Part shown: positions 4,920-18,249 of the stretch, one piece after another
Numbering within the stretch: position 1 is the stretch's first letter
How the letters are laid out: each line of letters opens with the position of its first letter
DNA from: Candidatus Paceibacter sp.
GTDB taxonomy: Bacteria; Patescibacteriota; Patescibacteriia; Magasanikbacterales; UBA922
Direction of reading: 5' to 3'
Length of the DNA stretch: 64,000 nucleotides
NCBI GenBank assembly: GCA_020725175.1
Contig: DYFM01000005.1
Location: 1,855 to 65,854, forward strand
The notes under the pieces: model-generated
Database searches by the model: none
What the model was told of the DNA's origin: nothing
The model's input: the letters and a program-made list of their open reading frames with translations, nothing else
Translations under genes and position numbers: made by a program

Positions 4920-6050
4920 ATGGAACAACATGAACACGAACAACAGCCTGTTCACGAAGAAACTACTCATGAGCAACCAGTAACCTCACAGGAATCACCT
5001 ACAGTAAGAACACAGCGATCCCCGTGGATTCTTTTTGGTGTAGGTATTGCTGCCGGGGTAGTAATCTGTGGTGCAGTCCTATTTACTACTGTGTTTCGAG
5101 GGACTGAACCAGGGTCAGATAGTAAGGTGGCAGGATTTTTTACTAATTTGGGAAACACGTTTAAAGGATCGGTTGCTTCAATCAATGGGAGTTCCGTATC
5201 TTATGCCAAATACGTAAGTGATTTGGCAACCTTGAAAAAATTTGTGGAAAACACTCCAGAAGCCGGGTTCAATTTTTCCGATGAAGAACTTTCTGATCAG
5301 GTACTCAGTCGCCTACTGATCAATGAACTCATGAAGCAAATGGCCGAGGATCTCGGAGTAAGTACCTCAAAAGAAGATATTGAGAAAGCCCGTCAAGACT
5401 TTTTGTCACAATTTGAAACAGAAGAGGCGGCAGCCAAAGAGCTTCAGGAACGATATGGTTGGACCTTGGAAGATTTCATGAATAATGTCGTGAAACCGGC
5501 TGTACTGGAAGGGAAGGTCTCTGAAGCATTTGCGTCGAGCACCAATCCGGAATTTGAAAAATATGGTGGTGTGCAACAAGTACGTGCCCGACACATTTTG
5601 TTCAAAGTAGATGATCCGGAAAAAGAAGCTGCGGTAAAAAAACAAGCTGAGTCTGTATTGCAACAAATCAAAGACGGCGCAGACTTTGCAGAAATGGCCA
5701 AAAAACACGGGAGCGATGGTACCAAAGACACCGGCGGTGATCTAGGATTCTTTGGCCGAGGGGCAATGGTACCGGAATTTGAATTAGCCGCGTTTGCTCT
5801 TGACGCAGGGGAGCTTAGTCAGGAACTGGTAAAAACTCAGTTTGGTTACCATATTATCAAAACCGAAGAAGTGCAACGTGGGTTAAACTTCCAACAGTAT
5901 TTAATTGATCGAGTAAAGAGTTCAAATATTAAAATTGACAAGGGTGTCCACAATCCATTTGAGGAGCTTATGAATCAACCATCTGTTTCTGATGAACCAG
6001 TAGTTGAGGTGGCTCCGGAAGAAACTGCTCCGGTTGAAGAAAACTCATAG
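4920..6050 (+). CDS. Parvulin-type peptidyl-prolyl cis-trans isomerase (PrsA/SurA-like), membrane-anchored
   Basis: PpiC-domain motifs ARHILFKV, GGDLGFFGRGAMVPEFE and GYHIIK. There is an N-terminal transmembrane segment. Confidence 0.7.
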   Translation: MEQHEHEQQPVHEETTHEQPVTSQESPTVRTQRSPWILFGVGIAAGVVICGAVLFTTVFRGTEPGSDSKVAGFFTNLGNTFKGSVASINGSSVSYAKYVSDLATLKKFVENTPEAGFNFSDEELSDQVLSRLLINELMKQMAEDLGVSTSKEDIEKARQDFLSQFETEEAAAKELQERYGWTLEDFMNNVVKPAVLEGKVSEAFASSTNPEFEKYGGVQQVRARHILFKVDDPEKEAAVKKQAESVLQQIKDGADFAEMAKKHGSDGTKDTGGDLGFFGRGAMVPEFELAAFALDAGELSQELVKTQFGYHIIKTEEVQRGLNFQQYLIDRVKSSNIKIDKGVHNPFEELMNQPSVSDEPVVEVAPEETAPVEENS

Positions 6051-6730: not shown

Positions 6731-7543
6731 TTATTCTGATTGGGAATAGTGAATAGCATCTGAAATTTGGAGTGCGCGAGCTGTTTGTCTTACATCATGT
6801 ACACGAACAATTGAGGTACCATTTAGACTGGCAACGACATTGGCAGCGAGTGTTCCTTCCAGTCGATTAGTAACAGGTAGACCAGTAATATGTCCGATAA
6901 ATGATTTTCTTGAAGCGCCGACAAGCAGTGGAAATCCAAGATCGGTAAATTCAGACAACCGTCGTAATAGTTCAAGATTGTGCTGAACGGTTTTCCCAAA
7001 CCCTATTCCTGGATCAAGAATAATGTCTGAAATTCCGTCAGCCGTTGCGGCATCGATTTGACGAAGGAAAAATTCTTTGATTTCGGCTACTACATCGTCA
7101 TATGTAGGACACTCCTGCATGGTTTTCGGATCACCCTTCATGTGCATGATAATAGCGGTTGCCTTGTGTTCAGCTACAATATATCGCATTTTTGGGTCAG
7201 TAAGTCCGGTGATATCATTGATAATACTAGCGCCGTTTTCTAGCGCCACTTTTGCGACAGCTGGTTTAAAGGTGTCTACTGATATCGGAACACGAATTTC
7301 ATCTTTTAGTTCTTGTAGAATAGGGAGAATTCGATCAATTTCTTCTTCTGGCGGGATAATATCAGCTCCCGGACGACTACTTTGTCCACCGAGATCAATA
7401 ATGTCTGCCCCGTCCGCAATCATTACTTCGGTGTGGCGTAGCGCCAATTCAGTATTATGATAATAAATACCGCCATCGGAAAATGAGTCCGGGGTGATGT
7501 TGAGAATACCCATGATAGCAGTTTTGTATGGTGGAAGATGCAT
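6731..7543 (-). CDS. folP: Dihydropteroate synthase
   Basis: The pterin-binding motif GILNITPDSFSDGG and the overall DHPS fold pattern are present. I placed the start at the internal ATG (MHLPPYK...), because the longer ORF runs antisense through tRNA-Thr. Confidence 0.85.
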   Translation of the reverse strand: MHLPPYKTAIMGILNITPDSFSDGGIYYHNTELALRHTEVMIADGADIIDLGGQSSRPGADIIPPEEEIDRILPILQELKDEIRVPISVDTFKPAVAKVALENGASIINDITGLTDPKMRYIVAEHKATAIIMHMKGDPKTMQECPTYDDVVAEIKEFFLRQIDAATADGISDIILDPGIGFGKTVQHNLELLRRLSEFTDLGFPLLVGASRKSFIGHITGLPVTNRLEGTLAANVVASLNGTSIVRVHDVRQTARALQISDAIHYSQSE

Positions 7544-8769: not shown

Positions 8770-8850
8770 CTAAGTATACTACGTCTGCTAAGTGGCTTAG
8801 TCAACTAAGTCAACTCAGAAAACTCAGATAACTCAGAATCAGAAACAGCT

Positions 8851-9830: not shown

Positions 9831-10193
9831 ATGGGGGGTACGGCCAATTTTAAGAATTTGTTTGTTTATCAGTGTTCATTCAAAAATGCCCTAGAGATAT
9901 ATCGTTTCTCTCAACAGTTGCCTCAATACCTACGATATGATATTGCAGATGACCTGAGAAGAGCAGCTAGATCAGTCCCTTCCAATATTGCTGAAGGATA
10001 TGGAAGGAATAAATCAAATGCTGATATTGTAAACTTTTTACGAACTTCGTTGGGATCGAATGATGAAGTGGTGTTTAATCTAGAGTTTTTAAAAGGATTA
10101 TCCTTGATTAACGAAGAGCAGTATCAACATTTTACAGGTCAAAGCAAACTTATTGGGTCGGGCTTACAAAAATTAATACAGTCACTTTCCTAG
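9831..10193 (+). CDS. Four-helix-bundle protein (TIGR02436 / 23S rRNA intervening-sequence protein family)
   Basis: NIAEGYGR motif and an overall ~120-aa helical pattern. Confidence 0.65.
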   Translation: MGGTANFKNLFVYQCSFKNALEIYRFSQQLPQYLRYDIADDLRRAARSVPSNIAEGYGRNKSNADIVNFLRTSLGSNDEVVFNLEFLKGLSLINEEQYQHFTGQSKLIGSGLQKLIQSLS

Positions 10194-10308
10194 TTTTTAC
10201 ATTTGTTGATTTTGATAGAAGTCAACAAATATGAAAAACTAAGAGAACATAAAGTTCTTAGTGAACTCAGAAGACCTAGTTTACTCAGGTCACTCAGAAA
10301 ACTCAGAC

Positions 10309-10379
10309 TCGGGGATCGTCTAATGGTAGGACTCCAGGTTTTGGTCCTGGCTATCGGGGTTCGAATCCCTGTCCCCGAA
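10309..10379 (+). tRNA. tRNA-Gln (anticodon TTG)
   Basis: Acceptor TCGGGGA/TCCCCGA, anticodon stem CCAGG/CCTGG with loop TTTTGGT, T-arm CGGGG TTCGAAT CCCTG. Confidence 0.7.
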
Positions 10380-10513
10380 CGAGGCTATTTGCTCATCTTT
10401 TTTCAGATTGACAATGGCCTGTAAATATAGTAAACTAATGTCGAAGTTTTTAGTGCGCTAAGTTATCTGAGTAGGCTCAGTCAACTTAGAACTCTTAGAA
10501 AACTCAAAAACAT

Positions 10514-10677
10514 TCGGAAGTAGCTCAGTGGTAGTCCCGACAGTGGTCGGGAGTATATCCTCAAGAGCTATATACGGATGAGAATTACAACATATTCGGA
10601 AGTAGCTCAGTGGTAGTCCCGACAGTGGTCGGGAGTATATCCTCAAGAGCTATATACGGATGAGAATTACAACATAT
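10514..10677 (+). repeat. Two tandem 82-bp units, each beginning with the first ~22 nt of tRNA-Asn
   Basis: catattcggaagtagctcagtggtagtcccgacagtggtcgggagtatatcctcaagagctatatacggatgagaattacaa appears twice with period 82. The third unit is the genuine tRNA gene. Each unit contains the hairpin tcccgac/gtcggga. Confidence 0.75.
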
Positions 10678-11087
10678 TCGGAAGTAGCTCAGTGGTAGAG
10701 CAGTTGGCTGTATATCACGGAATGCGTGTTTTATTACGCATACGACTAGCAGCTCTCGATAGGAATATCGGGATGAAGAACAAGGTGAATTGCTGGAAAC
10801 CCTATCAGGTTATGCTGAGGGTAATCAGCAGCCAAGCCCTATATCTCTACGGAGATCAGTAGGGAAGGTTCAGAGACTATCCTGTAATGGGAGTAGGCTG
10901 GTACATGTATCAGTCGAAGCGCCTTGCACCCCATCGCTTTCGAGCAATCGAAATTTGGCGAGGGTGAAGATATAGTCCACGCTTTCCTGACTATATTGTC
11001 GGGACGATAAACCGTTTCGGTTGTCGCTGGAAACAGGAGATATTACGTGTAACCAATTGGTCGTGGGTTCGAATCCCACCTTCCGAG
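10678..11087 (+). tRNA. tRNA-Asn (anticodon GTT) interrupted by a group I intron; exons 10678-10711 and 11050-11087
   Basis: The exons fold as acceptor TCGGAAG/CTTCCGA with discriminator G, D-arm GCTC AGTGGTA GAGC, anticodon stem GTTGG/CCAAT, and T-arm GTGGG TTCGAAT CCCAC. The anticodon loop becomes CT GTT AA when the exons are joined after U35. U1-A72 with G73 fits Asn identity; Thr-UGU is the alternative if the splice site is two nt upstream. Confidence 0.65.
10712..11049 (+). ncRNA. Group I self-splicing intron in the tRNA-Asn anticodon loop, ~338 nt, no endonuclease ORF
   Basis: The conserved core elements are present: P (aattgctggaaa), Q (aatcagcagc), R (gttcagagacta) and S (aagatatagtcc). 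The 5' exon ends in U and the intron ends in G. Confidence 0.7.
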
Positions 11088-11311
11088 CAAAAAAGGGTGA
11101 GCAGGTTCTAACGAGCCTGTTTTCTTGTATATGGAGCCATTTTTGAGAAGTTCGGAAGTGAGAAAAAAAGCACTAACTATTTTTTGCTTCAAATAAGACA
11201 TACTTAATTTATCTCGGTGACTAGTGTCGGTGGGGTTCGGACTACGTGTACATAATAAACAAAATAAGAGTATCATTACTCTTATTTTGAAAAATCATTG
11301 TTTTGGTTAAT

Positions 11312-18096: not shown

Positions 18097-18249
18097 ATCA
18101 AAATATTTGTTGAGAAGTAATAGATAAAAAATGCAGTAACCACACTTCCGCGGTAATCACTCATCAATCAGGACTACTCAGTAAACAAAACCAACTTAAC
18201 TTACTCCAAAAACTTAGCTTACCCAGAGAACTCAGAAAACCCAGTCAAC

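Follow-up and report, generated by a model that had tools for sequence, protein, structure and literature searches.

A tRNA-Asn(GUU) gene of a Magasanikbacteria-like patescibacterium, very probably split at U35/U36 by an IA-like group I intron, and copies of the tRNA 5′ end upstream of it

A stretch of 64,000 nt from Candidatus Paceibacter sp. (contig DYFM01000005.1, assembly GCA_020725175.1; the whole stretch is hereafter called the window) very probably carries, at 10678-11087, a tRNA-Asn(GUU) gene of Magasanikbacteria-like Patescibacteria that is split between anticodon positions U35 and U36 by a 338-nt, endonuclease-less, IA-like group I intron. Taking together strong comparative evidence and published experiments on a homologue, the element would most likely work as a self-splicing intron whose removal creates the GUU anticodon. 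The intron is a further example of a catalogued and experimentally validated family, not a discovery. Directly upstream of the gene lies an 82-bp tandem repeat that did not figure in the initial annotation of the locus, and that contains copies of the tRNA 5′ end. The gene and its parts are as follows.

10678-11087, + strand: split tRNA-Asn(GUU) gene, from position 1 to discriminator G73
10678-10711, + strand: exon 1 of tRNA-Asn(GUU), positions 1-35, last base U35 (ARAGORN with introns allowed)
10712-11049, + strand: group I intron, 338 nt, IA-like, no open reading frame (ORF), omega-G at 11049 (Rfam family RF00028, ARAGORN boundaries, covariation)
11050-11087, + strand: exon 2 of tRNA-Asn(GUU), U36 to discriminator G73 (ARAGORN)

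When run over the whole window in its default mode, ARAGORN returned only tRNA-Gly, tRNA-Thr and tRNA-Gln and missed the split locus. With introns allowed, it called a tRNA-Asn(GTT) with a 338-nt intron and the junctions gctgt/atatc...acgtg/taacc, and excision of 10712-11049 left a canonical 73-nt tRNA-Asn(GTT) cloverleaf; a comparison of the spliced and unspliced forms in ARAGORN showed that the GUU anticodon is present only once the intron is removed. The initial annotation, made from the letters of the sequence alone, had given the same tRNA, an insert of about 338 nt and the exact range, and its statement that the cloverleaf forms only after removal of the insert agrees with the outcome of the two ARAGORN modes. 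The insertion point falls between U35 and U36 of the anticodon (GCUGU/...G/UAACC), with the wobble of helix P1 at U35. Here too the first reading stands, in that a U at 10711 closes the 5′ exon and a G at 11049 closes the intron directly before exon 2; G is the last intron base in all 12 homologous sequences described below.

The Rfam Intron_gpI model (RF00028), which the initial annotation had proposed as a check, matches 10722-10999 with 76.2 bits (gathering score 50, E = 1.4e-17) and over its full length (model positions 1-253 of 253). The four core elements that had been picked out by eye are present, with P at 10788-10799, Q (aatcagcagc) at 10823-10832, R at 10868-10879 and S at 10967-10978. 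Two ORFs internal to the intron, of 61 aa and 69 aa, have no Pfam match, and we therefore regard the intron as lacking a homing endonuclease, as originally claimed.

To obtain homologues, we used a pattern of the two P4 strands (P and Q elements) and retained one genome per species, which yielded 14 loci, all with Rfam group I matches and most from Patescibacteria metagenome-assembled genomes (MAGs). Reading the exons by hand showed that 11 of the 14 (L001-L005, L008-L012 and L014) are tRNA-Asn(GUU) genes split at CUGU/...G/UAA. ARAGORN labels several of these 11 as Thr, Asp, Ser, Leu or Tyr, and these labels are boundary mis-calls. Five further relatives were sampled through FtsX, among them L024 and L026.

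Several observations concern the exons and their surroundings. The acceptor stem shows compensatory changes relative to L011, L024 and L002, which indicates that the tRNA-Asn is under selection, and the D arm and anticodon arm mostly match those of the intronless tRNA-Asn of L026. The first 11 nt of exon 2 (TAACCAATTGG) are the same as in an experimentally validated homologue. CCA is not encoded, as the discriminator G is directly followed by CAAAAA. No other tRNA-Asn gene was found by ARAGORN or Rfam within the 64-kb window. A 77-aa ORF at 11043-11276 on the - strand, which the public assembly annotates as a gene, overlaps with the intron at its 3′ end and with exon 2 and has no Pfam match; it is probably a spurious call, made probably because the split tRNA-Asn is not annotated.

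Intron structure, covariation and proposed splicing

We aligned the window intron with its 11 tRNA-Asn homologues (12 sequences) using MAFFT, after removal of the endonuclease ORFs of L001, L002 and L005. Base pairs were counted on 43 core pairs that are in register in this alignment, and the peripheral segments were folded sequence by sequence. This completes the P1-P9 model that had been suggested for the locus. In the 43-pair core, 94.6% of cells are paired; sliding the 3′ partners by 1-3 columns lowers this share to 32-46%. Twelve core pairs change on both sides, and the covariation score was reached in 0 of 500 shuffles. The compensatory changes sit in P3, P6a, P7.1 and P8, while P4 and P7 are invariant. 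The elements of the model are listed here.

10706-10711, + strand: 5′ strand of P1, exon GGCUGU, pairing with the internal guide sequence
10749-10754, + strand: internal guide sequence GCAGCU, the 3′ strand of P1
10722-10741, + strand: additional hairpin within the P1 loop, at the site where relatives have an HNH endonuclease ORF
10755-10772, + strand: P2 hairpin, 7 bp, GGAA tetraloop
10781-10787 with 10920-10926, + strand: P3 (CAAGGUG at 10781-10787), 100% paired in the 12 sequences, 3 pairs changed on both sides
10791-10830, + strand: P4-P5 domain (P4, 10791-10796 with 10825-10830; P5, 10800-10821), P4 invariant and fully paired
10831-10869, + strand: P6/P6a/P6b, with 4 of the 5 P6a pairs changed on both sides
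10875-10879 with 10973-10977, + strand: P7, GACUA with UAGUC, invariant and 100% paired in the 12 sequences
10880-10892 and 10896-10915, + strand: P7.1 and P7.2, between P7 and P3′, hairpins in all 12 homologues
10927-10966, + strand: P8, extended, 3 pairs changed on both sides
10983-11040, + strand: P9, GAAA loop, lineage-specific 40-nt insertion at 10987-11026

P7 crosses P3, giving the P3/P7 pseudoknot core with its guanosine-binding helix. All 12 sequences keep the P1 core CUGU/GCAG unchanged, together with the U35-G wobble at the 5′ splice site, and this upholds the 35/36 insertion site of the initial annotation. The window and L011 are identical in the block around the guide sequence (ACGACTAGCAGCTCT); at the site of the P1-loop hairpin, L011 has a hairpin that differs from the window's. 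Hairpins at P5, P6, P7.1, P7.2, P8 and P9 occur at the same positions with different sequences in every homologue; P7.1 includes a compensatory change from C-G to U-A. A hairpin of differing sequence at the P2 position was captured by an anchor pattern in 8 homologues. The 40-nt insertion in P9 is missing from all 11 other homologues.

Introns of subgroup IC3 lack P7.1 and P7.2. Michel and Westhof are said to have taken, in 1990, the extra helices P7.1 and P7.2 between P7 and P3′ as the criterion of subgroup IA. Judged from its predicted helices, the window intron is marked by P7.1 and P7.2 as a member of the IA-like lineage that typifies Patescibacteria, in agreement with the published class of introns at the 35/36 site (PMC13011429).

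The course of expression can be outlined from these features together with two flanking signals.

10408-10436, + strand: promoter-like site TTGACA-17-TAAACT upstream of the leader and repeats (consensus scan, 10/12 matches), of putative function
11099-11122, + strand: terminator-like hairpin and T-run, 12 nt past the tRNA-Asn

Transcription would probably start at the promoter-like site and produce a long 5′ leader. The intron is expected, from the covariance-model match and the covariation, to fold into a P3-P9 core, and the exon sequence GGCUGU would pair with the guide GCAGCU to form P1, placing the U35-G wobble at the 5′ splice site. Free guanosine held in P7 would then attack after U35, the terminal G at 11049 would take its place, and the exons would be joined to give the GUU anticodon; experiments have demonstrated this splicing chemistry in a homologue whose exon junctions are the same (PMC13011429). 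By general tRNA biology, RNase P would remove the leader, including the repeated tRNA 5′ ends, and CCA would be added, since it is not encoded. In L002, a comparable stem-loop followed by a T-run was seen by eye after the tRNA-Asn.

Relation to known tRNA introns and competing readings

Among classical bacterial hosts of tRNA group I introns is the tRNA-Ile of Azoarcus. Other classical sites are tRNA-Leu(UAA) at 34/35, tRNA-fMet at 33/34 and tRNA-Arg at 36/37, with introns mostly of subgroup IC (PMC13011429). The window intron resembles these classical introns in its location in the anticodon loop, the U before the 5′ splice site, the terminal G and very similar R and S elements, and self-splicing is common to them and to the family at 35/36. 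It differs from them in its position within the loop and in a compensated change in P4, GCUGG/UCAGC instead of GCGGG/UCCGC.

The initial annotation had suggested that tRNA-Asn might be a new host and 35/36 a new site. According to Nakagawa et al., the tRNA-Asn site 35/36 appears as ‘Asn.4Ug’ in Williams 2020 (bioRxiv 10.1101/2020.01.27.920355), and group I introns at 35/36 are the main subject of the study by Nakagawa et al. itself (bioRxiv 10.1101/2025.07.03.662931; mSystems 2026, PMC13011429), in which self-splicing was shown; given this listing, as cited there, and these experiments, the suggestion is out of date. In 95 complete Patescibacteria genomes, 35/36 group I introns were found in 15 tRNA-Asn(GUU) and 3 tRNA-Asp(GUC) genes, and 25 of 28 introns at this site belong to subgroup IA, most without endonuclease genes, although four tRNA-Asn introns carry HNH endonucleases (PMC13011429). 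The same study describes how standard tools miss or mis-call these introns, with Thr(UGU) and Asp(GUC) errors, and reports that they self-splice precisely in vitro, with the product sequenced and an omega-G to C mutant as control; guanosine-dependent self-splicing in vitro was demonstrated for the homologue of GCA_016700035.1 (PMC13011429).

We compared the window gene with four published sequences from the supplementary table of PMC13011429, to which it is 61-69% identical overall, with conserved core blocks. Identity to the in vitro validated intron of GCA_016700035.1 is 65% overall, and the junctions are the same (GGCTGT/...GTG/TAACCAATTGG). With the tRNA-Asn(GUU) 35/36 introns of Patescibacteria, the window shares host tRNA, site, phylum, the guide sequence GCAGC and the P/Q/R/S-type core. 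The closest published case, GCA_016699245.1 (Paceibacteria), has Q and R elements letter-identical to those of the window and P and S elements that are off by an insertion or one base, and it likewise has a P1-loop hairpin and the same P7.1 and P7.2. Relative to the published set, the window intron exceeds the usual length of 220-260 nt, its MAG lies outside the complete genomes of that paper, and an 82-bp repeat with copies of the tRNA 5′ end stands upstream; such repeats are not mentioned in PMC13011429, the text of which contains neither ‘duplicat’ nor ‘pseudogene’.

Two competing readings of the locus need to be weighed. One keeps the same intron and shifts its boundaries by two bases, giving a tRNA-Thr(UGU) split at 33/34 in which exon 1 ends at U33 (10709), the intron ends at G 11047 and the loop reads CUUGUAA. 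With the shifted boundaries, too, the 5′ splice site is preceded by U and the intron ends in G, ARAGORN called L009 and L014 ‘Thr(tgt)’, and the same ambiguity is documented for ARAGORN and tFind (PMC13011429). Yet the splice-site wobble in the conserved P1 is U35-G10749, while U33 pairs Watson-Crick with A; the anticodon and D arms mostly match the intronless tRNA-Asn of L026, ARAGORN calls Asn at the window locus, and the sequenced spliced product of a homologue with identical junctions is tRNA-Asn (PMC13011429). We thus consider a tRNA-Thr identity extremely improbable. A decaying relic, meaning a pseudogene whose intron has ceased to splice, with a functional tRNA-Asn encoded at another place in the genome, also seems very unlikely to us. 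The unusual insertions in the P1 loop, P8 and P9 would fit such a relic, as would the exon fragments upstream and the fact that 64 kb of the genome are open to inspection. Against it, no core pair is disrupted and active relatives have identical core blocks, compensatory changes preserve the tRNA stems, the window contains no further tRNA-Asn, and intron-containing and intronless copies of one anticodon rarely coexist in a genome (PMC13011429).

Some of the same observations count against our preferred reading of a self-splicing intron in a functional tRNA-Asn gene. P10 comprises at most 2 bp, and three lineage-specific additions (the P1-loop hairpin, the enlarged P8 and the 40-nt P9 insertion) could bear on folding. 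During folding, the true acceptor-stem strand could face competition from the 5′-exon copies in the leader, and, with 64 kb of genome seen, other tRNA-Asn copies may exist elsewhere.

The homologues also give some indication of how this copy of the intron evolved. Its 338 nt exceed the 223-267 nt of most relatives, owing to the P1-loop hairpin, larger P7.2 and P8, and the 40-nt P9 insertion. The introns of L001, L002 and L005 (540-551 nt) have a homologous ribozyme core at the same site, and L002 and L005 hardly differ from the window in their 3′ exons, but the three introns carry an HNH ORF of about 105 aa in the P1 loop, where the window has a 20-nt hairpin and no ORF. The internal guide sequence is overlapped by the last codons of the HNH ORF, whose stop codon falls within the L2 tetraloop. 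Together, the HNH ORF (L001, L002 and L005), the small hairpin (window and L011) and the 3-10-nt loop of six other homologues form a plausible evolutionary series. In the window and L011, the guide sequence is immediately preceded by bases (ACGACTAGCAGC) that are similar to the end of the ORF in L002 and L005 (GGAATTAGCAGC), a likeness that may hint, weakly, at ORF loss, with which it is compatible. The window intron encodes no endonuclease ORF of the kind that characterizes homing introns and cannot move by itself; probably, either the ORF was lost from it or its lineage never acquired one. Among the five relatives sampled through FtsX, L024 has a tRNA-Asn with an intron, in inverted orientation, the complete genome L026 has an intronless tRNA-Asn, and the other three have no tRNA-Asn nearby, which indicates that the intron is patchily distributed even within the clade. 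In L024, the closest of the FtsX relatives (62% identity), the intron-bearing tRNA-Asn at 1007-1667 is inverted between tRNA-Thr and tRNA-Gln, pointing to rearrangement around the tRNA-Asn gene.

The upstream repeat and recurrent copies of tRNA 5′ ends

The region between the promoter-like site and the gene contains a repeat that can be divided into two segments, A and B.

10512-10698, + strand: perfect 82-bp tandem repeat, 2.3 copies, unit A + B (TRF, 100% identity)
10512-10534, 10594-10616 and 10676-10698, + strand: A, 23 nt, comprising 2 flanking nt and tRNA positions 1-21
10535-10593 and 10617-10675, + strand: B, 59 nt, opening with the hairpin TCCCGAC-AGTG-GTCGGGA

The real gene starts with the third A, and the two upstream copies are hereafter called ghosts of the tRNA-Asn 5′ end. 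The A + B unit folds at -28.8 kcal/mol (z = -3.65). An origin of the repeat as an assembly artefact was rejected, as the NCBI MAG has the same 2.3 copies and both junction types occur in independent Logan contigs (SRR5011275), which contain the leader-A-B and B-A-gene junctions and break inside the repeat. Nor does B behave as a dispersed repeat or mobile element: no copy was found elsewhere in the window, in 14 related loci or in viral contigs, and two metagenome matches to the core of the B hairpin come from an unrelated organism and show no other similarity. The possibility that B is a decayed exon 1 plus intron start was dismissed because local alignment was no better than for shuffled sequences (p = 0.16 and 0.54). 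A known RNA family was likewise discarded, as a sensitive Rfam scan of 10200-11300 gave none for the leader and returned only the intron, tRNA-Gln, a sub-threshold tRNA match on exon 2 and a sub-threshold chance match.

The leader also contains an intergenic motif, CTYAGAAAACTCARA, which occurs on the + strand at 8814-8837, 10257-10307, 10494-10508 and 18222-18245, often as overlapping copies 9 nt apart (7 matches compared to 1.1 expected in the window). Its copies end 1 nt short of tRNA-Gln and 5 nt short of the first ghost copy, and also a little ahead of the ftsX start codon.

For each of the 29 tRNA genes in the fetched Patescibacteria loci, we then looked within the upstream 500 nt for stretches of at least 11 nt that repeat the gene's own start exactly. 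Ghosts were present at 5 of the 29 genes, compared to a chance expectation of about 0.003 per gene; they begin at tRNA positions -3 to 0 and lie 85-195 nt upstream. The ghost-bearing genes are the following.

Window: tRNA-Asn
L010: tRNA-Asn, 22 nt, oriented positions 7459-7480
L009: tRNA-Asn, 11-13 nt twice plus a degenerate third copy, at about -211, -152 and -65
L026: tRNA-Asn, intronless, 16 nt, 5838-5853
L026: tRNA-Thr, intronless, 15 nt, 2526-2540

In L010, as in the window, a GC-rich hairpin directly follows the ghost. In L026 (OZ246405.1, a complete genome), a two-hairpin element of about 70 nt (...CCTCCGAC-RAAG-GTCGGAGCGTCGGGA) stands directly after both ghosts, at 2541-2615 and 5854-5927; the two copies share 93% identity over 43 nt (E = 9e-14), fold at about -37 kcal/mol and show compensatory changes in hairpin 1, and D-loop sequence resumes past the element. 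Since the ghosts of L026 precede an intronless tRNA-Asn and an intronless tRNA-Thr, ghosts are tied neither to the intron nor to tRNA-Asn. As a separate observation, the last 15 nt of the L008 tRNA-Asn (ATCTCGCCCCCGGAG) are repeated 116 nt downstream, which is the classical 3′ pattern of integrative elements and is unlike the 5′ ghosts.

All integrative elements known to us duplicate the 3′ part of the tRNA, not the 5′ part, and enclose multi-kb islands with an integrase. Fragments of tRNA genes have been described as a by-product of integrative elements (Williams 2002; PMC9897764), and the window resembles such cases in having a partial, direct-repeat tRNA copy beside an intact gene. It differs in that the 5′ part (-2 to 21) is duplicated, that only 59 bp are enclosed and that the unit is tandemly repeated. 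In an attachment scar, the repeats would flank an element that carries an integrase; the 59 bp enclosed here give no ORF match, and the window has a single tyrosine recombinase, which is Xer-like and 37 kb away.

Two explanations for the repeat can be set against each other. Our best guess, held tentatively and at well short of even confidence, is that it is the scar of a small or decayed integrative element, or of recombination, at the 5′ part of the tRNA with a core from -2 to about 21, followed by unequal crossing-over between A copies that produced two 82-bp units. This would account for the frequency of ghosts among the 29 genes, far above chance, for the homologous two-hairpin element after the ghosts of two different L026 genes (Asn and Thr), and for the first ghost of the window adjoining a leader motif that also stands directly before tRNA-Gln, and it accords with the known occurrence of tRNA fragments as integration by-products (PMC9897764). 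It fits less well with the 59-175 bp between ghost and gene, which encode nothing, with the lack of an integrase near the repeat in the window, with the 3′ preference of the elements known to us, and with B having no detectable relative elsewhere. Alternatively, the repeat could be a footprint of the arrival of the intron: double-strand-break repair would have copied in an allele carrying the intron, joined by homology on the right and illegitimately on the left, within the D arm, so that the start of the resident exon was left behind as a ghost and the donor's upstream flank, B, came to lie after it. In L011, the native flank upstream (TTAACAACATAGATA, then TTCGG) is similar to the tail of B (TTACAACATA, then TTCGG), relatives carry an HNH endonuclease, and the intron-bearing L010 and L009 also have ghosts, all of which would be consistent with such an event; however, B is not significantly similar to the gene (p = 0.16) or to donor-like flanks, and because the intronless tRNA-Asn and tRNA-Thr of L026 show the same ghosts, we rank this footprint below the scar of an integrative element or recombination and regard it as improbable.

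Returning to a scar of integration or recombination, it is conceivable, if rather doubtful at present, that the ghosts, sometimes arrayed and each with a stable hairpin after it, mark an undescribed mechanism, in which a small hairpin-bearing element or a recombination process targets the D-arm part of Patescibacteria tRNA genes and rebuilds the gene downstream, with the repeat in the window as one instance.

Genomic context and significance

The window is a piece of housekeeping chromosome, with genes for a Mur ligase, a SurA/PpiC-like isomerase, HPPK, FtsE/FtsX, Era, CTP synthase and CysRS, and further for SufB/SufS, ClpB, GluRS, DinB, a Xer-type recombinase and LysRS. A phage origin of the region was rejected on this ground and because no meaningful phage match was found. 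Contig DYGQ01000007.1 (NCBI assembly GCA_020724605.1) is identical to the window except for one single-nucleotide polymorphism. The order FtsE-FtsX-tRNA-Gln-tRNA-Asn(intron) is common to the window and L011, a Candidatus Magasanikbacteria MAG (proteins 74% and 52% identical), and all named FtsX homologues belong to Magasanikbacteria or the ‘Patescibacteria group’, the nearest being 62% identical. This synteny and these homologues place the host as a Magasanikbacteria-like patescibacterium without a close sequenced relative. The protein database offered no close relatives for a base-level comparison of the spacer (the next FtsX is 62% identical), and no rRNA gene is present in the window. Two other features were noted: a match to DUF3800-II RNA (RF02961) at 2288-2361 on the - strand (54.5 bits, gathering score 43.2), and a gene for a four-helix-bundle ‘23S rRNA intervening sequence protein’ at 9831-10193, between ftsX and tRNA-Gln, which is absent from the syntenic L011.

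The intron itself matters little, as it is one more instance of its family, from a Magasanikbacteria-like MAG. Its value lies more in annotation, given that tRNA finders in default mode overlook the split gene, which is evidently unannotated in the public assembly, and that missed split tRNA genes lower the apparent completeness of genomes. The ghosts provide the more interesting lead. An undescribed mechanism of the kind outlined above, if true, would mirror classical integration at the 3′ end of tRNA genes, and if the ghost pattern holds genome-wide, it would point to an undescribed remodelling of tRNA loci in reduced genomes.

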